Source: Candidatus Iainarchaeum sp. | GTDB taxonomy: Archaea; B1Sed10-29; WALL01; JAGHAM01 | Reading direction: 5' to 3' | DNA length: 64,000 nt | NCBI GenBank assembly: GCA_021161465.1 | Contig: JAGHAM010000004.1 | Location: forward strand, 3,035 to 67,034 | Shown: positions 7,125 through 54,872 of the stretch, one piece after another | How positions within the stretch are numbered: the first letter of the stretch is position 1 | Layout: each line of letters starts with the position of its first letter | Translations under genes and position numbers: made by a program | Notes under the pieces: model-generated | Told to the model about the DNA's origin: nothing | Seen by the model: the letters and a program-made list of their open reading frames with translations, nothing else | Databases searched by the model: none

Positions 7125-8060
7125 TTATACCAATGTCTTTCCTTTATCCATTATCAGCTTGTCATCAAACCAGATAGTTGGTTTATCTATTACAAAATCT
7201 TGATGGATATCAGCATCGATGTTGCCACTAAGGCTCTTTGAGTCGCCAATGGCTACATGGCAGGTGCCAAACACCTTCTCGTCCTCTATCACCTTTCCGC
7301 TTAACCTTGCACCGGGGTTTGTCCCTATTGCGAATTCTGCTAGGTATCTGCCGTTTCTTATACTCCAGAAATAATTCTTGACTTTTGGGTCAGTTATATT
7401 GGTCACGTAATTATTTCTGGCTATGAACTTGGTGCCTTTCATGCATTTGAACGTTGGGAACTGTGTGTTGTATGGCGACCAGTGGCCATTGAGGTTTTTA
7501 GGCACAAAAGCAGTTTCACCAGCTGGCAGGTTTGACAGCGAGCCTTTTTTGCTTATGTCCCCATCATCCAGTAAGAACCTCTTCCCACCAATTTCAGTGG
7601 TAAACTCGGTATTTTTTGCTTTTACTTTCACAACTTTGGTTTTATTCAGTAGACGCGCGAGCTTTTGGTTTTCCTTTTTTATCCAGCTGTAGTCTGCACT
7701 CATTCCACGAACGAACATCTCTTCTGTCATTTCGGGGAGGGTTGCGATTCGCGCTCCTCTCCTCTTAGCGGCTCTCACAGCATTGGTGTGCGTCAATGAG
7801 TACTTGGTTGGGCAGTAAAGAATGTCAGCTTTCCTCATGGTTTCTGCAACAAGTTTTGGTGGCTCAAGGCCATGCTGTCCAGTTGGTTGGATTACAAGCA
7901 TAAGTGCGTTGCAACTCTCACTCGCTGCTTTGAACAGCGCGTTGCCAACGTCTAGGGTTAGCTCGTCAGTTACAACTAATAGGAGTTCCTTCTTTCTGGG
8001 TTTTGATAGCAGAATTGCCTTGCGCGCTGCCTTCATCAGGGAATTAGATACAGATGCCAT
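7125..8060 (-). CDS. aminopeptidase-like protein (M29/AmpS-like)
   Basis: Segments 'AEFAIGTNPGA' and 'GTCHVAIGD...GNIDADIH' resemble thermophilic aminopeptidase (M29) signature regions. Assignment by eye only. Confidence 0.45.
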   Translation of the reverse strand: MASVSNSLMKAARKAILLSKPRKKELLLVVTDELTLDVGNALFKAASESCNALMLVIQPTGQHGLEPPKLVAETMRKADILYCPTKYSLTHTNAVRAAKRRGARIATLPEMTEEMFVRGMSADYSWIKKENQKLARLLNKTKVVKVKAKNTEFTTEIGGKRFLLDDGDISKKGSLSNLPAGETAFVPKNLNGHWSPYNTQFPTFKCMKGTKFIARNNYVTNITDPKVKNYFWSIRNGRYLAEFAIGTNPGARLSGKVIEDEKVFGTCHVAIGDSKSLSGNIDADIHQDFVIDKPTIWFDDKLIMDKGKTLV

Positions 8061-10327: not shown

Positions 10328-10734
10328 GCTGGGGTGGCGGAAGTTCACGAGCAGGCAAGCTCGAGAAGTTCAGTTCACGAGCAGGCAAGCTCGAGAAACG
10401 CAATCCGGTTCAACGCGCCGGCCTCGAGTAGCCGCAAAATCGGCTAGCGCTTTAGGCGTCTCACGCTCCGCGTGAGAGCACCAGGTGTGGCCGTAAAATC
10501 GGTTCACGCGAACCGTAAAATCGGTTCACGCTTTGGGTGTTGCGCTACGCGCAAGCACCAGGCGGATGATTAAGGACTTAGTCTAAACCTAAGTGAAAAA
10601 TAACAGGTGCTAGACTTTGTCCAAGTGCCTTACGCTATATGTAAGGCAGGCATCCTGAAAGCCGGTGGGCGCAAGCCCGTGCAGGTTCAAACTGTTTCGT
10701 CTCCGTATGAAACAGGAAATTCCTGCCCCCAGCG
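10328..10734 (+). tRNA. tRNA-Ser(CGA) candidate interrupted by three introns (D-loop ~62 nt, anticodon 37/38 ~231 nt, T-loop 59/60 ~29 nt)
   Basis: Perfect 7-bp acceptor GCTGGGG/CCCCAGC with G73. U8-G9 and a 3-bp D-stem GCG/CGC with a GGTTCAA D-loop remnant. Anticodon stem CCGGC/GCCGG, loop CTCGAG|A. Type-II variable arm TGGGCGCAAGCCCGT (GNRA hairpin). T-arm GCAGG-TTCAAA[intron]T-CCTGC. Hand fold only. Confidence 0.45.
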
Positions 10735-12896: not shown

Positions 12897-15587
12897 ATGC
12901 CAAAAAACAAGAAGGATGTCATGGAACTTCTTAGAAAGAAACCAGACGAGTACTGGAAAGTGGACCTATTCGAAGAAAGGGGATTTAAGCGCCAGAAATG
13001 CCCTTCCTGTGGGACCTACTTCTGGAGCATTAACGAGAGGGAGAACTGCAGCAGCCCGCCGTGTGGAGACTACGAGTTCATAGGAAAGCCGCCAACCAAA
13101 AAGAGCTTCGACCTGATTAAGGCTTGGCGCGCGATAGAAAAATTCTTCGTCAAGAATGGCCATACCTCAATAAACCGTTATCCGATAATATGCAGATGGT
13201 TTCCCGGACTTTTCTTCACTGTGGCAAGTATAGTTGATTTCCAGCGCTCTGTTGGCGGGAAGCCAGTTTTTGAGTTTCCAGTTGACCCATTGGTCGTTCC
13301 TCAACCGTGCCTGCGTTTTAATGACATACCAAACATAGGCGTGTCCGGAAGGCATATGAGCAGCTTTACCATGGTTGGACAGCATACAAAGAAATACTGG
13401 AAGGACAGGTGCATTGAGCTCGACTATGAACTAATGACCAAAGTTTTTGGAATCCCAGAAGACAAAATTGTCTTCACTGAGGACATCTGGGTTGGACCAA
13501 GCGCATTTGGGTCATCACTGGAGTATCTGGTGGACGGTCTTGAGCTGGGCACGTCAGTATTTACATCGTTTTGGGGGACTCCTGATAATTTCAAGCCAAT
13601 GGATGAGAAAGTGATTGACATGGGTGCAGGCCTGGAGCGGTTTACCTGGATTTCACAAGGTACCCCAACTATATATGATGCTTCATACGGGCCCGTGATA
13701 GCAAAGCTGAAGAAGACTGTAGACTACGACAAAGAGCTTTTTACCAGGTATTCAAGGTTAAGCGGCAGGATAGATGCAGATAAGATGAACCCGCGGAAGG
13801 CATTTGAGGGGGTTGCAGGCAAGCTTGGTGTTTCAGTAAAAGAATTAGAGACGAGCATAGGACCACTACAGGCTGTGTATGCAATAACAGACCATGCTAA
13901 GGCGCTAACGTTTGCCATAGCGGATTCTGGGTTGCCGAGCAATGTTGGCGGTGGCTATAACCTTCGTGTCCTCTTAAGAAGAGCCTTGAACCTGATAAGC
14001 AAATATAATTTGGATTTCACGCTGAATGATGTTTGTGAGAAACATGCTAAATACCTAAAGCCGGTGTATCCATCCCTTGCAGAGAACCTTGATGAAATAA
14101 ATGAAATCCTTGATGTCGAGAAGAAGAAGTATGAAAGGTCTCTTGACAGGGCCAGGCGGGTCGCAAGGACGATAGTGTCTAAGTCAAGAAAAGTCCCCAA
14201 GGACAGGATGATACAGCTTTATGAGTCTCAGGGGGTCACTCCTGAGTTGCTGAAACAGGTTGCTGAGAGTGAAGGGAAGGACATAGAAATAGCTGAGGAC
14301 TTTTATTCAAGCTTGACTGCAAAACATTCGAAGGATGCTAGCGCTGAGTTCGTTGAGGTCGATGCTCCAAAGACTGTGAACCTGTATTATAGCCAGCCAG
14401 AGGCAAAGGAGTTTACTGCTAAGGTCTTGAAGAATTTCAAATACCAGGGCAAAAACTGGGTCATACTGGACAGGACATTATTCTATGCTGAGAAGGGTGG
14501 CCAGGACCATGACACTGGCTGGCTTGATGGGAAAAGAGTCATAGATGTTCAGGATATTGGTGGGGTTGTTCTTCACCAAGCTGAACCATTACCGGAAGGA
14601 AAAACTGTCAAGGGCCAAATAGATTGGGATAGGCGTATTATCCTTAGAAACCATCACTCTGCAACACACATAATCAACGGTGCGTGCCGCCGTGTGCTTG
14701 GTAACCATATCTGGCAGGCTGGTGCGTGGAAGGGGATAGACAAGGCCCATCTTGATATAACCCACTATGAGAACCTCTCACAGGAGCAGATAGACAGGAT
14801 TGAGAAGCTGGCGAATAAAGTAGTGCAGGAGAATAGACCTGTGACACAGAATCTAATGCCAAGGACAGAGGCTGAGAGCAAATATGGGTTTAGGCTTTAT
14901 CAGGGAGGAGCTGTACCTGCTGCAGAGCTTTACATAGTTGAGGTTAAGGACTGGGATGTTGAAGCTTGTGGGGGGACTCATGTCAGCAGGACCGGCGTTA
15001 TAAAGAAAATAGTGATTTCAGGAACAGAGAAAATCCAGGATGGCATTGTAAGGGTTCATTTCCTAGCTGGTGAACCAGCTTTGGAGTATCTAAAGAAAAT
15101 GGATTCTCTGCTTAAGGAAACTGCAGGCCTGCTTGGTGTTAAGGAGAGTAAAGTTCCAGAATCAGTTAAAAAGCTGTTGAGCAAGTGGAAGTCAAAGCGT
15201 AAGGAGTTTGAGAGGTTTTTGAAGAAGACGGCAGAGGAGAAGTCAAATGATATAAATCCAATTGAGTTAGATGGAGTCAAGGCGTATGTTTCTGTTGTTG
15301 AAGGGGTAGACATGCTTGGTTTAAGGGAGGTCTCCAAAAAGTTAGGCAACGATGACTCGTTTGTTTTCCTTGTAAGCGACAGGGGTTTTGTATTTGCAGC
15401 TGCTGGAAAGAATGTTATAGAGAGAGGCATAAATGCGGGGAAGATTGTTAGGGAAATAACTGGTTCCTATGGAGGAGGGGGTGGAGGACCACCCGAGAAA
15501 GGGGAAGGTATGATAAAGGATAGCACCTCTTTGGAGCAGTTGGTTGATGATGTAAAGGGTAAGCTTAGGAGGGCTTTGAATGGTTAG
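12897..15587 (+). CDS. alaS: alanyl-tRNA synthetase (archaeal type)
   Basis: 896 aa. Archaeal AlaRS N-terminal catalytic region, editing domain HxxxH/CxxxH ('HHSATHIINGACRRVLG', 'ACGGTHV'), and C-terminal DHHA1-like 'GGGGGGP' region. Confidence 0.9.
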   Translation: MPKNKKDVMELLRKKPDEYWKVDLFEERGFKRQKCPSCGTYFWSINERENCSSPPCGDYEFIGKPPTKKSFDLIKAWRAIEKFFVKNGHTSINRYPIICRWFPGLFFTVASIVDFQRSVGGKPVFEFPVDPLVVPQPCLRFNDIPNIGVSGRHMSSFTMVGQHTKKYWKDRCIELDYELMTKVFGIPEDKIVFTEDIWVGPSAFGSSLEYLVDGLELGTSVFTSFWGTPDNFKPMDEKVIDMGAGLERFTWISQGTPTIYDASYGPVIAKLKKTVDYDKELFTRYSRLSGRIDADKMNPRKAFEGVAGKLGVSVKELETSIGPLQAVYAITDHAKALTFAIADSGLPSNVGGGYNLRVLLRRALNLISKYNLDFTLNDVCEKHAKYLKPVYPSLAENLDEINEILDVEKKKYERSLDRARRVARTIVSKSRKVPKDRMIQLYESQGVTPELLKQVAESEGKDIEIAEDFYSSLTAKHSKDASAEFVEVDAPKTVNLYYSQPEAKEFTAKVLKNFKYQGKNWVILDRTLFYAEKGGQDHDTGWLDGKRVIDVQDIGGVVLHQAEPLPEGKTVKGQIDWDRRIILRNHHSATHIINGACRRVLGNHIWQAGAWKGIDKAHLDITHYENLSQEQIDRIEKLANKVVQENRPVTQNLMPRTEAESKYGFRLYQGGAVPAAELYIVEVKDWDVEACGGTHVSRTGVIKKIVISGTEKIQDGIVRVHFLAGEPALEYLKKMDSLLKETAGLLGVKESKVPESVKKLLSKWKSKRKEFERFLKKTAEEKSNDINPIELDGVKAYVSVVEGVDMLGLREVSKKLGNDDSFVFLVSDRGFVFAAAGKNVIERGINAGKIVREITGSYGGGGGGPPEKGEGMIKDSTSLEQLVDDVKGKLRRALNG

Positions 15588-18280: not shown

Positions 18281-21115
18281 GTGTTATCTATGCCAGCCTA
18301 CAAACACGAAAAGGTAGAGTTAAAATGGCAGAAAGAATGGGAAAACGCCGGGCTTAGCCAAGCCGATGCAGATCCAGAGAGAGAAAAGTACTTCTTGATA
18401 TTTGCCTATCCAGGAATCTCGGGCTTCCTTCATGTTGGCCATATGCGAGGCTACTCCTATTCTGACATCATCACTAGGTACAAGCGAATGCGCGGATTCA
18501 ACGTGCTCTTCCCAGCTGGCTTTCACGCCACTGGTATTCACGCTGTGGCGATAGCCGAGAAAATCAAGCGTGGCGATAAAAAATTAATCCAATATTTCAA
18601 GGACAATGGGGTTTCTGATAAGCAGATAGAGAAGTTCAAGGATTACAATGAGGTTGTAAAGTTTTTCTCAAAGGTTTACGTTGACGAGTACTGGAAACGC
18701 TTTGGGTTTCTCATAGACTGGAGGAGGCTTACGAGTACACTGCACCCAGGCTACCATAAGTTCATCCAGTGGCAGTTCAGGAAGCTGATGCAGCAGGGCT
18801 TACTAGTGCAGAAGGAGTACTATGGAGCTTTCTGTCCTCATTGTGGGCCGGTGGCAGTTGATGCAACTGAGACAGACTTGCAGAGGGGCGGAAATGCAGA
18901 GAAACTAGAGTTCACATTGTTGAAGTTCAAGTACGGAGATTCTTACCTAGTGGCTGCAACCTTAAGGCCTGAAACCATCTATGGCCAGACTAACATGTGG
19001 GTAAGGCCGGATATCAACTACGTGAAAGTTGAGGTAGATGGGGAGAAATGGATAGTTAGTGAGGAATGTTCTAAGGCTTTAACCGAGCAGGGAAAGAAAG
19101 TAAAGGTTCTGGAGGAAGTGCCTGGAAAAAGCATGATAGGAAAATACTGCCACGCGCCTGGCATAGATGGGGATATAATCATATTACCTTCTGATTTCCC
19201 CGACCCAAAGATAGGGACGGGCCTTGTTACTAGTGTACCTTCTGATGCACCTTACGATTACATCGCCTTGAAGGACCTACAGGGAAATCCAGGAGAGTGC
19301 AGAAAGTATGGGATTGACCCAGAGAAGGTTAAGGCGATAAAGCTGATACCAATAATCAAGTCCAAGGGCTATGGAGAATTCCCCGCAGAGGAAATTGTTG
19401 AGAGGATGGGTATAAAGAGCCAGCGCGAGACTGAGAAATTAGAGGAGGCTACCAAGGAGATATACAAATTGGGCTACCACACAGGGGTAATGCGCGAGAA
19501 CTGTGGGCCTTACGCAGGTATGCGAGTTGAAGAAGCCAAGGATGCTATGAAGGAGGACCTAATCAAGAAAGGTCTTGCCGACGTGTTCTATGCTTTCTCT
19601 GAGCCCGTGGTGTGCAGGTGTGGGAGAGATGTCGTCATAAGGAAGATAACTGACCAGTGGTTCATAAAATACAGTGATGAGTCTTTAACGGAGAAGTCAA
19701 AGCTGCATGCTGAAGGCATGAACATCTTCCCGGAGGATTACAAGAGGGAGATACCTGCGGTTCTGGATTGGTTCCAGGATAGGCCTTGTGTCAGACAGGG
19801 CTCTTGGCTCGGGACAAAGTTCCCATTCGATGAGAAATGGATTATAGAACCTATTTCAGACTCGACACTTTATCCAGCTTATTATGTTGTTTCTATCTAT
19901 GAGAACAATGGAGTAATCAAGCCAGAGGAGATGACCGAGGAATTCTTCGATTATGTTTTCTTGGGGAAAGGGGAACCAAAGAAACCAATCTGGAAGAGGA
20001 TAAGGGAGGATTTTGAATACTGGTACCCTCTTGATGTAAATTTGGGCGGCAAGGAGCACAAAACCGTTCACTTCCCTGCTTTCCTTATGAACCATGTTGC
20101 TATCCTACCTGGAACCTACTGGCCGAGGGGAATATTCGTGAACTGGTGGGTTTTGGGAAAGGCCGGTTCTAAAATAAGTAAGAGCAAGGGCGGGGCCGAG
20201 GCAATACCCGATATACTTGAAACTTACTCAGCTGACTCTATCAGGCTTTACTATTCTCATGTGGCTTCTCCGTTCCAGGACATCTATTGGGATGCTGACA
20301 CAGCCTTCAAGTACAAGAATGCTCTGGAACGTGCCTATGTAATATGTGAAACCCTCTCTGGACTGAAAGGCGGGAAATCAAGAATAGATAGCTGGCTGGA
20401 ATACAATTTCAATGAAAGCCTGAGGGAAGCAACTGACGCTATGGAGAACTATGACCTGAGAGTCGCCTCCGATGTAATTTTTTATGCCATACCGCGTATC
20501 CTCAACTGGTACCAGAGGAGAGGGGGAGAAAACACTAAGATGCTATCTTGGGTGTTGAGGGATTGGGTCAGATTGATGACTCCCTTCACCCCTCACCTTG
20601 CTGAGGAGATATGGCACTCGGTGCTTGGTGAGAAGAACCTAGTTTCGGTTGAGTCCTGGCCAAAAGCACGCGAGGTAGAAGCTGATGAGAGAGTGAATGA
20701 AGAAGAGGAGCTGCTTAGGGATATCCTAAGCGATACGCGTGATATATTCAAGCTGGTTGGTGGGAAGCCTTCAAAAGTTTTCATCTACACACCAGCTAAA
20801 TGGAAGTGGCAGGTTATTGGGAAGGTTAGGGGTAAAGAACGCGACTTCAAAGCATGCATACAGGCGGTAGCGGCTGACCAGGAGCTAAAGAAGGATGGGC
20901 CACGATTCATTAAGGCGATATTCAAGAAACTTCCTGGCTATTCGAGCAAACCCCAGATAGATGAGTATGATGGCCTAAAGAGCGCTGAGCTATTCCTCTC
21001 CGAGGAGCTTGGAGTTCCTGTAAAGGTTTTCAGAGAGGAGGACCCCAAGAAATACGACCCTACTGGGAAAGCATCTAAAGCGCTACCACTTTACCCTGCA
21101 ATATATGTAGAATAA
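18281..21115 (+). CDS. leuS: leucyl-tRNA synthetase (archaeal/eukaryal type)
   Basis: 944 aa. HIGH motif 'HVGHMRGY', KMSKS motif 'KISKSKG', CP1 editing insertion. Probable true start ATG at 18290. Confidence 0.9.
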   Translation: MLSMPAYKHEKVELKWQKEWENAGLSQADADPEREKYFLIFAYPGISGFLHVGHMRGYSYSDIITRYKRMRGFNVLFPAGFHATGIHAVAIAEKIKRGDKKLIQYFKDNGVSDKQIEKFKDYNEVVKFFSKVYVDEYWKRFGFLIDWRRLTSTLHPGYHKFIQWQFRKLMQQGLLVQKEYYGAFCPHCGPVAVDATETDLQRGGNAEKLEFTLLKFKYGDSYLVAATLRPETIYGQTNMWVRPDINYVKVEVDGEKWIVSEECSKALTEQGKKVKVLEEVPGKSMIGKYCHAPGIDGDIIILPSDFPDPKIGTGLVTSVPSDAPYDYIALKDLQGNPGECRKYGIDPEKVKAIKLIPIIKSKGYGEFPAEEIVERMGIKSQRETEKLEEATKEIYKLGYHTGVMRENCGPYAGMRVEEAKDAMKEDLIKKGLADVFYAFSEPVVCRCGRDVVIRKITDQWFIKYSDESLTEKSKLHAEGMNIFPEDYKREIPAVLDWFQDRPCVRQGSWLGTKFPFDEKWIIEPISDSTLYPAYYVVSIYENNGVIKPEEMTEEFFDYVFLGKGEPKKPIWKRIREDFEYWYPLDVNLGGKEHKTVHFPAFLMNHVAILPGTYWPRGIFVNWWVLGKAGSKISKSKGGAEAIPDILETYSADSIRLYYSHVASPFQDIYWDADTAFKYKNALERAYVICETLSGLKGGKSRIDSWLEYNFNESLREATDAMENYDLRVASDVIFYAIPRILNWYQRRGGENTKMLSWVLRDWVRLMTPFTPHLAEEIWHSVLGEKNLVSVESWPKAREVEADERVNEEEELLRDILSDTRDIFKLVGGKPSKVFIYTPAKWKWQVIGKVRGKERDFKACIQAVAADQELKKDGPRFIKAIFKKLPGYSSKPQIDEYDGLKSAELFLSEELGVPVKVFREEDPKKYDPTGKASKALPLYPAIYVE

Positions 21116-23064: not shown

Positions 23065-23288
23065 TTAAATCCCTTAACTCGGTATGCATTATTAAATATA
23101 CACGTTCTCATTTAAATATCTTTGCAATAATATTACATATGTATTCTTCCATTCTCCTATGCCATACTAAATCAGTCTGCCCGTCTGTCATCACAGCGTT
23201 AGCTCAGAACTCATAGGGCTCATCATCTGATGTTGATTGTCCCATAATTGGAATAAAAGGCTTCTGGTGATGTATCAGTTATTGACAA

Positions 23289-39647: not shown

Positions 39648-41138
39648 CTAGTTTCCTTTCATTTCCCACAGCTTCGTGCAGATGTCTTGAACCTTGACGC
39701 GCACTTGTTCAGTGGAGTCGCGCATGCGGATTGTTACCGTGTTATCCTTTAAAGTGTCAAAGTCGATGGTTATGCCAAATGGAACCCCTATCTCGTCAGC
39801 TCGCGCGTATCTCCTGCCAATGCTACCCGTGCCATCGTAAAACACTCTGAACCCAACACTACCGAGCATATTGTAAACTTCCCTGGCCTTTTCTGGCAAT
39901 CCGCCCTTATTGACTAGTGGATAGACGCTAACGTCATATGGCGCTACAACACTTGGTAGCTTAAGGTAATTATATTTGTGCTTCTCATCTGGCTCTGCGA
40001 GGGAGTTGTCTAAAATCAAGAAAACATTTCTGTCGACACCAAAAGAAAGTTCCAACACGTGTGGCAGGCACTTTTGGCCATCTCCATAACTAACTTCCAT
40101 AGTTTCGCCAGTGATCTCCTGATGGCCTTTTAAATCGTGGTCAGTCCTATAATGGAACCCAGCAACCTCAACCCACTTGTCTAGTGACGGCGAGTAGCAC
40201 TCAAGGTCGATGTGATACTTGTTGTAAAATGCTTTCTCTTTCTCACTGAGCTGGTGAAGTCTGAAGTTGTCCTTATTGAAACCCATGGACTCCATAAACT
40301 GGCACATTTTGGCTAGATGGAACACAAAGAAAGGTTCCATCCCAAGCTTCTTGGTAGCTTCCTTTCCAGTTATCATTATAGGATTCTTTGTCCCTTCCAG
40401 TAAGATGTTCATCTCCTGTTTCTCCACATGGTCAAAAGGAACTTCTGGTAACTTGTCAGGGTCGAAGAAGATTTGTAGTTCAGCCTGGGTGAATTCCCTG
40501 GCGCGCAACACCCCCTGCCTTGGACTTATCTCATTCCTGTAAGCCCTGCCAACCACGGCAAGGCCTAGGGGCAGCCTCTGGCGGTTCACCCTGAACTCGC
40601 GCTTGAATGCGGCATATGCTCCCTGGGCAGTTTCAGGTCTAAGATATGCAGTAACTATGTCATCTCCAGTTCCAACCTGAACTGGGAACATCAGCGTAAA
40701 AGTTTTTATCTCCTTGAACTCTCCCCCACATTTTGGGCAACGGATGTTGTGCTTTTTTATGAGCTTGCTAAGTTCTTCGGCAGTGACGCCTTCAAAGGTT
40801 TCGTGAAGCACATCCTCAACTATATGGTCGGCCCGCACGCGCTCACCGCATTTAGAACACTCAGCCACCGGGTCGAAGAAATGTTCTAAATGACCACTGC
40901 CCTTAAAAACCTTTTCAGGCATTATGGTGGTTGGTTCTATCTCATGGAAATTGTCGTTTAGAGCAAGGAAAAAAGTTCTCCAGTAGTTCTCCCATCTATG
41001 CTTTATCTCACTCCCAATACTGCCGTAATCATAAAATCCGGATATGTTGCCATGGAATTCACTATTTGGGTAAATTACTCCTCTTTGTAGCAGGATTTTG
41101 TTCAGAAGCTCAATGCGATTTATGTCCTTGTTGGGCAT
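39648..41138 (-). CDS. glyS: glycyl-tRNA synthetase (archaeal/eukaryal alpha2 type)
   Basis: 'FHGNISGFYDYGSIG' class II motif-1 region typical of GlyRS, plus a Zn-ribbon-like CxxC...CxxC insertion. Confidence 0.85.
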   Translation of the reverse strand: MPNKDINRIELLNKILLQRGVIYPNSEFHGNISGFYDYGSIGSEIKHRWENYWRTFFLALNDNFHEIEPTTIMPEKVFKGSGHLEHFFDPVAECSKCGERVRADHIVEDVLHETFEGVTAEELSKLIKKHNIRCPKCGGEFKEIKTFTLMFPVQVGTGDDIVTAYLRPETAQGAYAAFKREFRVNRQRLPLGLAVVGRAYRNEISPRQGVLRAREFTQAELQIFFDPDKLPEVPFDHVEKQEMNILLEGTKNPIMITGKEATKKLGMEPFFVFHLAKMCQFMESMGFNKDNFRLHQLSEKEKAFYNKYHIDLECYSPSLDKWVEVAGFHYRTDHDLKGHQEITGETMEVSYGDGQKCLPHVLELSFGVDRNVFLILDNSLAEPDEKHKYNYLKLPSVVAPYDVSVYPLVNKGGLPEKAREVYNMLGSVGFRVFYDGTGSIGRRYARADEIGVPFGITIDFDTLKDNTVTIRMRDSTEQVRVKVQDICTKLWEMKGN

Positions 41139-47265: not shown

Positions 47266-48126
47266 ATGTTAACAGTGAAAAATATAATGTTGGTATTCAT
47301 GGACTTTAAAAAACTCAGAGAGAAGGCATTTAAGGAAACTATTAATGAAGTTCGCAAGGAGAAGAAAGAAACTGATAACCTTGTTGTCCAGGCTGTTGAG
47401 GCGATAGATGAGCTTGATGATATCACGAATATCATAGTTGAGAGAGTGAAGAACTGGTATGCCTTCCACTACCCAGAGCTTGAAAAGCTCGTGAAGGATC
47501 CTATGCTATACCTGCTTATAATAAAGGAGATTAAATCGAGAGACCAAATGCTCGCTGAAAAACTCGAGAGGTTTGTCGGGCCAGAACGGGCAAAAGCTAT
47601 TGCAGAGAAAGCTGTTGGGTCTATGGGGGCCGAGATTGTAGATAAAGACCTGCAAAGGCTTGTACATCTGGCAGAGCTTGGGATTCATGCAAGACAAGAA
47701 AGGGATGAGTTGGCCGATTACATAGAAGAGAGGACAAAAGAAATCACACCAAACCTTCATGCTATGCTTGGTGGTATGCTTGCTGCAAGGCTTATAGCGA
47801 GAGCAGGTTCACTTGAGCGGCTAGCTAAAATGCCTGCCAGCACCGTGCAGGTACTGGGCGCGGAGAAGGCATTGTTTGCACATCTGCGTAGGGGTGTTCC
47901 TTCTCCAAAGCATGGTTTGATATTCCAGTTCCCACAGATAATCCAGTCCCCAAAGAAGCAGCGTGGGAAGATATCCAGGGCGCTGGCTGGGAAGGTTTCC
48001 ATAGCAGCCAAGGAGGATTTCTTTGGAAATAAGGATATAAGCAAAGAACTAATTCAAAGCTTTGAAAAGCGGGTTGAGGCTATAAAGGAGGGAGCATCAA
48101 AGAAGAAGGGTGGCAAGCATGAATGA
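47266..48126 (+). CDS. Nop5/Nop56-family C/D box snoRNP protein (short archaeal form)
   Basis: Nop domain 'MLGGMLAARLIARAGSLERLAKMPASTVQVLGAEKALF...HGLIFQ'. True start probably the Met at about 47299. Confidence 0.8.
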   Translation: MLTVKNIMLVFMDFKKLREKAFKETINEVRKEKKETDNLVVQAVEAIDELDDITNIIVERVKNWYAFHYPELEKLVKDPMLYLLIIKEIKSRDQMLAEKLERFVGPERAKAIAEKAVGSMGAEIVDKDLQRLVHLAELGIHARQERDELADYIEERTKEITPNLHAMLGGMLAARLIARAGSLERLAKMPASTVQVLGAEKALFAHLRRGVPSPKHGLIFQFPQIIQSPKKQRGKISRALAGKVSIAAKEDFFGNKDISKELIQSFEKRVEAIKEGASKKKGGKHE

Positions 48127-48775
48127 AATCTTTCATAATGTTTTCCGTGAAGGCAACAAACTTTACACAAAGAACTTAGTTCCTGGGCAACGGGTTTACG
48201 GAGAAAAACTTTTGGAAACTGGCCGGGGAGAGCTGAGGGAATGGAACCCAAACAGGTCCAAGCTGGCTGCGGTGATACTAAAGGGCTTGAAAACGTTTCC
48301 ACTCAAGCAAGATTCAAAGGTGCTCTATCTCGGTGCTGCCCAGGGAACCACTGCATCACACGTTAGCGATGTAGTGGACAAAGGTTATGTTATCTGTGTT
48401 GATGTATCCTCTAAGGCTATGGAGGAGCTGATACCTCTGTGCGAATCCCGCCAGAATATGCTTCCGGTTCTTGGAGATGCTAACAGGCCTGGAGAGTATG
48501 CTAAGTATACTCTTGGAATTAATATGATTTATCAGGATGTTGCCCAACCAAACCAAGCTAAAATACTGCTAAAGAACGCTTCACTGCTTGATCCAGGGGA
48601 GTACGCTATCTTATGTATTAAAAGTAGGTCAATAGATGTTGCAGAAGACCCAAAGAAAATCATCAAAAAAGAGTTGGAATCCGTTTCTGATGGTTTTTTT
48701 GTGAGAGAGGTGATTGACCTCGAGCCATACCACATGGACCATGCACTAGCTGTGTGTGAGAAAAAACTTAGTTAG
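48110..48775 (+). CDS. flpA: fibrillarin-like rRNA/tRNA 2'-O-methyltransferase
   Basis: 'VLYLGAAQGTTASHVSDVV' SAM-binding motif of fibrillarin. Start overlaps the Nop5 stop. Confidence 0.85.
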   Translation: MASMNEIFHNVFREGNKLYTKNLVPGQRVYGEKLLETGRGELREWNPNRSKLAAVILKGLKTFPLKQDSKVLYLGAAQGTTASHVSDVVDKGYVICVDVSSKAMEELIPLCESRQNMLPVLGDANRPGEYAKYTLGINMIYQDVAQPNQAKILLKNASLLDPGEYAILCIKSRSIDVAEDPKKIIKKELESVSDGFFVREVIDLEPYHMDHALAVCEKKLS

Positions 48776-52033: not shown

Positions 52034-53701
52034 ATGCTTGAGTTTAGAAAGCAGGTAGCTGTTGCCTTGTCAAAGGCCTCTGGCGTTGAAGTCAAGCCCA
52101 GGGAATTGACCATACCACCAAATCCAGAGTTAGGTGACTTATCTTCTAATGTGGCTTTTCAGCTTCCTGGGAACCCGAAGGAAAACTCGGAGAAGATAGC
52201 TGGGAGGATAAAACCGAGAGGGCTTATTTCTAAAGTTGAAACCAAGGGACCTTACATAAACTTCTTTCTAAACTGGGCCGAATTCAATCGATTGACCATA
52301 GCTACTGCACTGAAACACAATTATGGTAAAAACACGGACTACACAGGGAAGACAGCAATGGTTGAATACAGCCAACCAAATCCAAATAAGCCTCAGCATG
52401 TTGGGCATTTGAGAAATAACCTTCTAGGCATGGCAGTTTCAAATATACTGGAAGCTAACGGTTGGGAGGTTGTTAAAGCTAATCTTATAAACGACCGTGG
52501 CATCCACATATGCAAGGCCATGCTTGGATACCTCAAGTGGGGGGAGGGCAAAGAGCCCAATGAAAAGCCAGACCACTTCGTTGCTAAGTTTTACCAGCGC
52601 TTTGTCATGGAGGAGGCTAAGGACCCTGAGCTAACTAAGGAAGCCCAGGAGATGTTGAGGAAGTGGGAAGCAGGTGACCCACAGGTAAGGGCGCTATGGA
52701 GGAAGATAGTAGATTGGGCCTATAAAGGCTGGAACGAGACTTACTCCATGACAGGGACTGAGTTTGACGTTTGGTTCTACGAAAGCGAGACGTATCTGGA
52801 TGGAAAGAGGATTGTTGATAGTGGTTTGAAGAGAGGGGTGTTCAAGAAGGCTGATGATGGGAGTGTTTATGCAGAACTTGAACCAGAGTTGCCGAATAAA
52901 ACAGTGCTCCGTTCAGATGGAACTTCTATTTACATAACTAACGATTTAGCTCTTGCAAAGAGAAAGTTTGAGAGCTATCCGTTGGATAAGAGTATTTATG
53001 TGATTGGCTCCGCTCAAAATACTTATATGAAACAGCTTTTCAGGATTCTAAAGCTGCTTGGTTTTGAGTGGTCGGATAAGTGTTGTCATTTATCCTATGG
53101 TATGGTTTCATTGCCAGAAGGGAAGATGTCTTCAAGGCTTGGCAGGATGATTTACGCTGATGACTTGCTGGATGAAGTTATCAACCTGGCGGAGAAGGAA
53201 GCCGAGAAAAAGGGTATCAGCGAGGATGTTAAGGAGACGGCTAAGCACGTTGGGCTGGCTGCTATCAAATTTAACTTTCTGAAGGTTAACCATAGGAAAG
53301 ACATATTGTTTGAGAAGGAAAAGGCAGTTTCGTTTGAGGGAGATACCGGGCCTTATGTGCAGTATGCCCATGCTAGGTGCAATCAAATAATTGAAAAACT
53401 TGGCAGCTATGGAAAGCCAAATTACTCCAAGCTGACAACACTCCACGAGCGCGAACTCGTGAAGAAGATAAGTGAGTTCCCTGAGATTGTGAGGGAGTGT
53501 GGGGAAACTCTTGAGACACACCCTATAGCTAATTATCTGCTTGAGCTGACGCACACGTTCTCTGATTTCTATGCTAATTGCCCCGTGATACAGTCCAGAG
53601 GCTCTTTAAGGGCAGCTCGTGCTGATTTGGTGAAAGCAACTAAGGGAGTTCTATCTACTGGATTAAGCTTGCTTGGTATAAAACCATTGGAGAAGATGTG
53701 A
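52034..53701 (+). CDS. argS: arginyl-tRNA synthetase
   Basis: 'YSQPNPNKPQHVGHLRN' HIGH region. C-terminal DALR anticodon-binding-like region. 555 aa. Confidence 0.85.
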   Translation: MLEFRKQVAVALSKASGVEVKPRELTIPPNPELGDLSSNVAFQLPGNPKENSEKIAGRIKPRGLISKVETKGPYINFFLNWAEFNRLTIATALKHNYGKNTDYTGKTAMVEYSQPNPNKPQHVGHLRNNLLGMAVSNILEANGWEVVKANLINDRGIHICKAMLGYLKWGEGKEPNEKPDHFVAKFYQRFVMEEAKDPELTKEAQEMLRKWEAGDPQVRALWRKIVDWAYKGWNETYSMTGTEFDVWFYESETYLDGKRIVDSGLKRGVFKKADDGSVYAELEPELPNKTVLRSDGTSIYITNDLALAKRKFESYPLDKSIYVIGSAQNTYMKQLFRILKLLGFEWSDKCCHLSYGMVSLPEGKMSSRLGRMIYADDLLDEVINLAEKEAEKKGISEDVKETAKHVGLAAIKFNFLKVNHRKDILFEKEKAVSFEGDTGPYVQYAHARCNQIIEKLGSYGKPNYSKLTTLHERELVKKISEFPEIVRECGETLETHPIANYLLELTHTFSDFYANCPVIQSRGSLRAARADLVKATKGVLSTGLSLLGIKPLEKM

Positions 53702-54664: not shown

Positions 54665-54831
54665 GGACGCGTAGCCTAGCCAGGATTGTTCCGTGGCAAC
54701 AGCTCATGGAATCCTGATAGGGCACCGGCCTTCTAAGCCGGCTATCGGGGGTTCAAAATAAGGAGGAGGGACACGTTCCCTCCTCCCTTATAAGCCCTTC
54801 TCCTTTGCGAGTGAGTTTCCCTCCGCGTCCG
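54665..54831 (+). tRNA. tRNA-Arg(UCU) with D-loop intron (~32 nt) and T-loop 59/60 intron (~60 nt)
   Basis: Acceptor GGACGCG/CGCGTCC with G73. U8 A9. D-stem GCCT/GGGC, D-loop AGCCAGGA[intron]TA. Anticodon stem CCGGC/GCCGG, loop CTTCTAA. Variable CTATC. T-arm GGGGG-TTCAAA[intron with 12-bp hairpin]T-CCCTC. Confidence 0.6.
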
Positions 54832-54872
54832 CTTCTTATTGTTATTTAAGTTACAATGAACAAAATAACATT

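Follow-up and report, generated by a model that had tools for sequence, protein, structure and literature searches.

The question raised by positions 54665-54831 (+) of the window, as we call the whole 64-kb stretch of DNA that was analysed, is whether a sequence that carries the parts of a tRNA together with two inserts is a gene, and how a tRNA could be made from it. With regard to the first point, this is a real tRNA-Arg(UCU) gene, consisting of three exons and two short inserts. The initial annotation had reported a full set of tRNA elements, and each of them was found (Table 1). ARAGORN called no tRNA anywhere in the raw 64-kb window, and Rfam gave no tRNA match to the raw gene at either the gathering score or E≤10, also in a search confined to 221 bases; hairpin matches without meaning were all that this 221-nt region gave. 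When both inserts were deleted in silico, the resulting 75-nt product was called as tRNA-Arg(tct) by ARAGORN and has a canonical cloverleaf.

Table 1. Features of the tRNA-Arg(UCU) locus, of the other tRNA and aminoacyl-tRNA synthetase genes in the window, and of the intact orthologues. Positions refer to the window unless another locus is named.
Feature	Position	Strand	Remarks
Putative promoter box TTTAAA	54635-54640	+	TATA-type; about 25-30 nt 5' of the mature end; predicted function
Exon 1	54665-54686	+	acceptor 5' strand, U8 A9, D-stem 5' strand, D-loop A14 G15 C16 C17 A17a G18 G19 A20 U20a
Intron 1, 32 nt	54687-54718	+	D-loop, between U20a and A21; relaxed HBh' motif
Exon 2	54719-54757	+	A21, D-stem 3' strand, A26, anticodon arm, variable loop, T-stem 5' strand, T-loop 54-59
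Intron 2, 60 nt	54758-54817	+	T-loop, 59/60; relaxed hBH motif
Exon 3	54818-54831	+	U60, T-stem 3' strand, acceptor 3' strand, G73; CCA not encoded
Putative transcription stop	54832-54850	+	T-rich trailer CTTCTTATTGTTATTT; predicted function
Acceptor stem GGACGCG / CGCGTCC	54665-71 / 54824-30	+	7 bp
U8 A9	54672-73	+	
D-stem GCCU / GGGC	54674-77 / 54720-23	+	U13.G22
Anticodon stem CCGGC / GCCGG	54725-29 / 54737-41	+	
Anticodon loop CUUCUAA	54730-36	+	anticodon UCU 54732-34
Variable loop CUAUC	54742-46	+	5 nt
T-stem GGGGG / CCCUC	54747-51 / 54819-23	+	5 bp
Discriminator G73	54831	+	
Arginyl-tRNA synthetase (ArgRS)	52034-53701	+	Pfam tRNA-synt_1d, DALR_1, Arg_tRNA_synt_N; upstream of tRNA-Arg
AlaRS	12897-15587		
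Class I synthetase, Leu/Ile/Val-type	18281-21115		
Class II synthetase	39648-41138		HGTP anticodon-binding domain
tRNA-Ser(UGA), class II, 407 nt	10328-10734	+	at least three inserts
Ser insert 1, about 60 nt	around 10345-10404	+	D-loop; tandem duplicate of GTTCACGAGCAGGCAAGCTCGAGAA
Ser insert 2, 231 nt	10425-10655	+	after C32 U33; CCGTAAAATCGGTTCACGC repeats
Ser insert 3, 29 nt	10692-10720	+	59/60; inner helix of 6-7 bp
tRNA-His(GUG)	28415-28199	-	G-1:C73; two introns
His intron, 87 nt	28375-28289	-	37/38; strict hBHBh', 4-bp central and inner helices; clearest match of the BHB scan
His intron, 55 nt	28267-28213	-	59/60
tRNA-Ile(UAU), 431 nt	50188-49758	-	
Ile intron, 35 nt	50149-50115	-	37/38; sequence kept in two related genomes
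Ile insert, 321 nt	50092-49772	-	59/60; three related tandem units, each ending GGAAG or GGAAAG
Intact tRNA-Arg(UCU), L029	9720-9794		
Intact tRNA-Arg(UCU), L028	9961-10035		
Intact tRNA-Arg(UCU), L027	9917-9991		

All combinations of D-loop and T-loop segment deletions were run through ARAGORN, and thousands of nearby ones gave tRNA-Arg(tct). Since this test alone leaves the exon borders unfixed, they were set by homology. The spliced 75 nt needed no gaps for alignment with intact tRNA-Arg(UCU) genes of archaea, 57-71 of the 75 positions being identical; the values were 64/75 for L027, 67/75 for Methanocaldococcus and 71/75 for the orthologue in L001, itself spliced by removal of one T-loop intron. 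A one-genome-per-species scan with an anticodon plus T-arm pattern supplied intact tRNA-Arg(UCU) references from Methanococcales, a Woesearchaeote and others, all of them unrelated archaea rather than relatives of the window genome. The D-loop of the spliced product reads AGCCAGGATA, as against AGCCTGGATA in the intact D-loops of L001 and Methanocaldococcus, and the T-loop is TTCAAAT in the spliced product as well as in the intact reference genes. As for structure, all 21 pairs of the cloverleaf (stems of 7, 4, 5 and 5 bp, with a 7-nt anticodon loop) form in the spliced sequence. In an alignment of 11 sequences the cloverleaf was 99.6% paired, and 11 of the 21 pairs had changed on both sides; this pairing was matched by none of 500 shuffles, and slid registers likewise fell far below it. 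The spliced sequence also has U8, A14, G18 G19, A21, U33, G53 U54 U55 C56, A58, C61, the anticodon UCU, C35 and A20, which in the D-loop of E. coli tRNA-Arg is an arginine identity element. With regard to the flanks, TTTAAA or TTTTAAA precedes the Arg, His and Ile genes of the window and the L001 orthologue (at about -25 to -32), the Ser gene having instead a T-rich TTTTTTTAAT at about -27 to -36. Oligo-T is the usual archaeal termination signal, and the trailer behind exon 3 is T-rich.

The host MAG carries the NCBI label Candidatus Diapherotrites; the Nop5 of the window is 100% identical to its protein MCD6414162.1, which is encoded there on a 77-kb contig. The best matches of the window ArgRS are DPANN proteins (80% and 64% identical in two assemblies, about 52% in Candidatus Micrarchaeota). 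The initial annotation had noted that double-intron tRNAs at 59/60 are known mainly from Thermoproteales and some DPANN lineages; this hint proved apt, as the source MAG is a DPANN archaeon and ARMAN-2 has documented introns at 59/60 (PMC3239211). The link of ArgRS with a tRNA-Arg(UCU) gene on its downstream side recurs in L001, L027, L028 and L029, whose ArgRS is 53-64% identical to that of the window. In L027, L028 and L029 (ArgRS 53-57% identical) ARAGORN called an intact 75-nt tRNA-Arg(UCU) at most about 250 nt downstream of ArgRS, with Rfam scores of 71.2 bits for L027 and 68.1 bits for L029. The gene in L001 (1.17-Mb contig, ERZ10759799, ArgRS 64% identical) has the acceptor GGACGCG of the window gene, an uninterrupted D-loop and a single 37-nt insert exactly at 59/60; the gene order there is ArgRS, AIR-synthase-like gene, one further ORF and tRNA-Arg, and the window has the same order minus the extra ORF. 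The D-loop insert was absent from every orthologue (L001, L027, L028 and L029). The orthologues thus form a series with no, one and two introns, by which both junctions are fixed independently of any folding rule or RNA data. No tRNA-Arg was seen near the ArgRS locus of L002 (ArgRS 63% identical), and metagenome scans for T-loop-interrupted and for D-loop-interrupted tRNA-Arg(UCU) found none. L028 also carries a tRNA-Arg(CCG) upstream of ArgRS. Just 5' of ArgRS in L027 there is a 168-nt tRNA-like gene (7792-7959, +) with good acceptor (GGGCCGG.../...CCGGCCT G), D-arm and T-arm; its anticodon region is longer by about 93 bases, and it was not called by ARAGORN.

Between the window and L001 the exons are conserved at 71 of 75 positions while ArgRS is only 64% identical, and introns and flanks are unalignable save for the TTTAAA box and a short 14-nt leader (AAAATTyTArGGC), which argues for purifying selection on the exons and against a pseudogene. 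A tRNA-Arg disabled by two insertions and decaying, with the working tRNA-Arg(UCU) encoded elsewhere, would suit the blindness of the standard finders to this gene, and a second copy is possible, the sequence at hand being 64 kb of the genome. We nevertheless regard such decay as very unlikely: all conserved tRNA positions and 21/21 stem pairs are intact, the exons have kept 95% identity with L001 although flanks and introns have diverged beyond similarity, and the site beside ArgRS is conserved. The other three tRNA genes of the window, including that for the single-isoacceptor tRNA-His, are interrupted alike, and since all tRNA genes of the window are interrupted in the same way, decay of all of them is excluded.

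How, then, could the inserts be removed? In bulge-helix-bulge (BHB) motifs each strand is taken to be cut behind the second base of its bulge. The defining feature of the family, according to a review (PMC4090602), is a central helix of 4 bp with a 3-nt bulge on either side. This arrangement, with symmetrical predicted cut sites, is present at both junctions of the Arg gene, and its geometry coincides with the exon borders set independently by homology. Brute-force BHB scans were noisy, with dozens of chance matches, and only motifs at homology-defined borders were relied on.

At the D-loop junction, the previously described 32-nt insert with a 7-bp CAGGATT/AATCCTG helix is real, the helix lying at 54681-87 / 54710-16. 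The central helix of the motif consists of the 4 bp CAGG 54681-84 / CCUG 54713-16, the bulges are AU/U at 54685-87 on the 5' side and AU/A at 54717-19 on the 3' side (3 nt each, the slash marking the cut), and the inner helix comprises 9 bp (54688-96 / 54704-12). The probability of finding these helices in exact register by chance is about 3e-6. Because the three unpaired bases A14-C16 part the D-stem from the central helix, the motif is of the HBh' form. The trinucleotide GAT recurs at either end of the insert, so that four cut positions would give an identical product; among these equivalent cuts, BHB geometry is found only at 54686/54687 with 54718/54719.

The T-loop had been described as broken after TTCAAA by about 60 nt, and the insert is exactly 60 nt long (54758-54817). 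The perfect 12-bp hairpin ascribed to it could not be upheld, as the quoted 3' arm TCCCTCCTCCTT is absent from the sequence; since the 3' arm in fact reads TCCCTCCTCCCTT, a single C bulges from the hairpin, which then has 14 bp (10 bp if only contiguous pairs are counted). In its 14-bp form this hairpin, P1, spans 54759-54790 with C54785 bulged, and it starts directly after the 5' bulge of the splice motif. A K-turn or C/D-box reading of the hairpin was rejected, the required GA/GA and box motifs being missing. The splice motif has the T-stem (54747-51 / 54819-23) as its outer helix, UUCA 54752-55 / UGAG 54812-15 as its central helix and 3-nt bulges of AA/A (54756-58, 5') and UU/U (54816-18, 3'), which place the cuts exactly at 59/60. 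The inner helix is a single U.G pair, or is replaced by P1, giving the hBH form; an alternative 11-bp inner helix (54760-70 / 54795-805), read by eye, would be more ordinary. The T-loop motif is the counterpart of the canonical 37/38 arrangement. By itself, its 4-bp helix has a chance probability of about 0.02. The helix covaries between the two orthologues that can be compared, with UUCA/UGAG in the window (A57-U, U54.G) versus UUCG/CGAA in L001 (G57-C, U54-A). In a small sample of seven 59/60 introns (window Arg, His, Ile and Ser, L001 Arg, and Ile of L030 and L031) at least three of the four central pairs are kept; U54, U55 and C56 pair with the intron 3' end in all seven, and the fold of T-stem, bulge and helix lies 0-6 kcal/mol over the free minimum of each.

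The initial reading of two non-canonical introns, one in the D-loop and one in the T-loop at 59/60, is thus supported as to number and place, the D-loop site being 20a/21; the motifs, however, are the relaxed HBh' and hBH forms, and the strict hBHBh' form is found at neither Arg junction. Of the outcomes that would have told against this reading, neither a lack of BHB-like motifs nor a failed ARAGORN call after in-silico removal of the inserts was encountered. A fold of the Arg precursor constrained to both motifs and the cloverleaf stems has -70.5 kcal/mol, versus -76.6 kcal/mol for the free minimum, a cost of about 6 kcal/mol; the free-energy minimum is a fold other than the BHB-compatible one.

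We consider it highly probable that the gene specifies a functional DPANN tRNA-Arg(UCU) and that its single precursor is spliced at both BHB-like motifs. In this process the TATA-like box would give one precursor of about 170 nt (the gene has 167 nt), the folding of which would present one BHB-like motif per insert. The archaeal tRNA splicing endonuclease would cut each 3-nt bulge behind its second base, releasing the D-loop intron by cuts at 54686/54687 and 54718/54719 and the T-loop intron by cuts at 54757/54758 and 54817/54818. A ligase of the RtcB type would then join the three exons into the 75-nt tRNA, and CCA would be added after ligation. As both motifs are relaxed (the D-loop motif has no contiguous outer helix, and a local hairpin takes the place of the inner helix in the T-loop motif), an endonuclease of broad specificity would be needed, as in ARMAN-2, and we predict that the host has such an enzyme. 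Where enzyme specificity is broad, relaxed BHB forms count as accepted members of the family. Pfam searches of about 55 ORFs from the 64-kb window revealed no splicing endonuclease and no RtcB ligase.

Genuine inserts might instead leave the RNA by another route than a BHB endonuclease, either by self-splicing (group I or II) or through an unknown nuclease. The motifs are relaxed, and group I introns are reported from DPANN archaea (PMC6125680), but a ribozyme would not fit into inserts of 32 and 60 nt, and no Rfam intron family was matched at E≤10. Such a route is also made very unlikely by the exact 3-4-3 geometry at both junctions and by the report that the ARMAN-2 endonuclease cuts a motif of the same type at the same position in vitro (PMC3239211). 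Hardly credible is the idea that the inserts are scars of mobile-element integration (disrupted att sites) or expansions kept in the mature RNA: tRNA genes are often integration targets and the 3-nt GAT repeat flanks the D-loop insert, but the adjacent genes code for an AIR-synthase-like protein and a methyltransferase rather than for an integrase or other products of a mobile element, the inserts have merely 32 and 60 nt, the tRNA 3' half is not duplicated, and retained inserts would disrupt the D-loop/T-loop interaction and displace A20.

In the window as a whole, a scan for an acceptor stem plus T-arm returned exactly four GC-rich candidates (Arg, His, Ile and Ser), in line with the four such genes counted by the initial annotation. 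After removal of the inserts, ARAGORN called the last three as tRNA-His(gtg), tRNA-Ile(tat) and tRNA-Ser(tga), having missed tRNA-His in its raw form. All four tRNA genes are multiply split, and all four have an insert at 59/60. Units B and C of the large Ile insert contain pseudo 3' splice sites able to pair with the real T-arm, and the Ile orthologues carry 59/60 inserts of 57 nt in L030 (8679-8513) and 49 nt in L031 (9039-8879). For the 231-nt insert in the anticodon region of the Ser gene no convincing BHB was found. Archaeal tRNA introns range from 11 to 129 nt according to a 2014 review (PMC4090602), a range exceeded by the 321-nt Ile insert and the 231-nt Ser insert; the portions of the tRNA-intron literature consulted here contain no mention of tandemly duplicated introns of 231-321 nt. 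Three introns per gene is the reported maximum, which the Ser gene would surpass if its duplicated D-loop units were separate introns.

Several of these introns share a module that lies right after the 5' splice bulge and consists of AAGA, a hairpin and UCUAA(A)CCC. It is found in His and Ile introns of the window (both introns in the case of His), in the Arg intron of L001 (7653-7689) and in the Ile intron of L030 (about 8590-8534, -), and the T-loop intron of the window Arg gene has a looser version, CTTATAAGCCC. The two His introns are identical at 28 of 29 positions (96%) over their first 28-29 nt (AAGAGGGGCTGCGCCCCTyCTAACCCCA), and the L001 Arg and L030 Ile T-loop introns, which belong to one genome, are identical at 27 of 28 positions by manual count (AAGAAGGGGCAAGyCCCTTTCTAAACCC) and resemble the His introns of the window. 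The module is common to different tRNA genes, to positions 37/38 and 59/60, and to genomes whose ArgRS are 64% identical. Part of it matches the anticodon-loop sequences CTTCTAA and CTTATAA, possibly by chance. BLAST searches of the introns against the window showed similarity within the His and within the Ile genes only, and none for either Arg intron. The module may have arisen by common descent, by copying between genes or from a structural need beside the 5' bulge. We tentatively suggest, as a possibility that is rather less than even, that structured tRNA introns form a family which is proliferating in this lineage and has expanded by tandem duplication, a 59/60 intron being present in every tRNA gene seen in this connection (4/4 in the window plus the interrupted Arg and Ile orthologues). 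If so, the module would be either a lineage-specific recognition element that replaces the inner BHB helix or the signature of introns copying themselves between tRNA genes.

The four split tRNA genes are interspersed with four aminoacyl-tRNA synthetase genes within the 64 kb (Table 1). Elsewhere in the window, 23170-23230 (-) resembles a C/D-box sRNA with the boxes AUGAUGA...CUGA...UGAUGA...CUGA; its best Rfam match, sR12, reaches 30.1 bits and stays below the gathering score of 38. The partner proteins Nop5 (47266-48126, +) and fibrillarin (48110-48775, +) are encoded in the window. Because gene finders overlook all four tRNA genes of the window, essential tRNAs will seem to be absent from genomes of this lineage. 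Missed tRNA genes in DPANN genomes were suspected by Kaneta et al. (PMC5829648). The chief value of the present locus lies in annotation and in the material it offers for studying intron spread. The orthologue series at one conserved, ArgRS-linked site is a clean natural record of the gain or loss of tRNA introns.

The architecture of the gene is established biology, in that tRNA introns of this kind, including those at 59/60, are documented in ARMAN-2, Thermoproteales and Methanopyrus. A very high density of non-canonical and multiple introns, as in the window, is described for the Asgard groups Atabeyarchaeia and Freyarchaeia, in which 92-95% of the tRNA genes are reported to have introns (PMC11291895). 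These groups belong to a superphylum unrelated to the window host, and the comparison is one of descriptions, not of sequences. Work by Sugahara in 2008 and by Fujishima in 2010, cited in PMC4033280, reportedly described tRNA genes with several introns in Thermoproteales as well as the transposition of introns there. The Thermoproteales are reported to have multi-intron tRNA genes and similar introns that have spread between genes (PMC4033280, PMC8450103). They resemble the window in that a gene may hold as many as three introns, at numerous positions of which 59/60 is one, and in sharing similar introns across tRNA genes, which may be compared with the 5' module; they differ in belonging to another phylum and in having an (alpha-beta)2 enzyme with the crenarchaeal loop. 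The pre-tRNA-Glu(UUC) of Methanopyrus kandleri, as reported by Kaneta et al. 2018 (PMC5829648), combines a relaxed HBh' D-loop intron with a second intron, as the window Arg gene does, and its D-loop intron apparently also lies just before A21, judging from an A21-G37 fragment. The second intron of M. kandleri is, however, the canonical one at 37/38, and the host is a euryarchaeon whose (alpha-beta)2 enzyme has a constrained specificity.

Close parallels come from ARMAN-2 (Candidatus Micrarchaeum acidiphilum), in which 56% of the tRNA genes are reported to be disrupted (Fujishima et al. 2011, PMC3239211). Its pre-tRNA-Pro(GGG), described in the same report (PMC3239211), shares with the window Arg gene a pair of non-canonical introns that includes one at 59/60, but there both introns lie in the T-loop (53/54 and 59/60) and have the strict hBHBh' form, whereas the second intron of the window gene is in the D-loop. 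For pre-tRNA-Cys(GCA) of ARMAN-2, a relaxed hBH intron at 59/60 is reported to be cut in vitro by the epsilon2 endonuclease (PMC3239211). Cleavage is thus demonstrated in that organism, and splicing of the window Arg gene is predicted from sequence; moreover, the Cys intron has only 13 nt, as compared with 60 nt and a stable hairpin after the 5' bulge in the window. In all other respects considered, namely a DPANN host, an intron at 59/60, the T-stem as outer helix, a relaxed hBH motif and many disrupted tRNA genes, the ARMAN-2 pre-tRNA-Cys is like the window tRNA-Arg(UCU).
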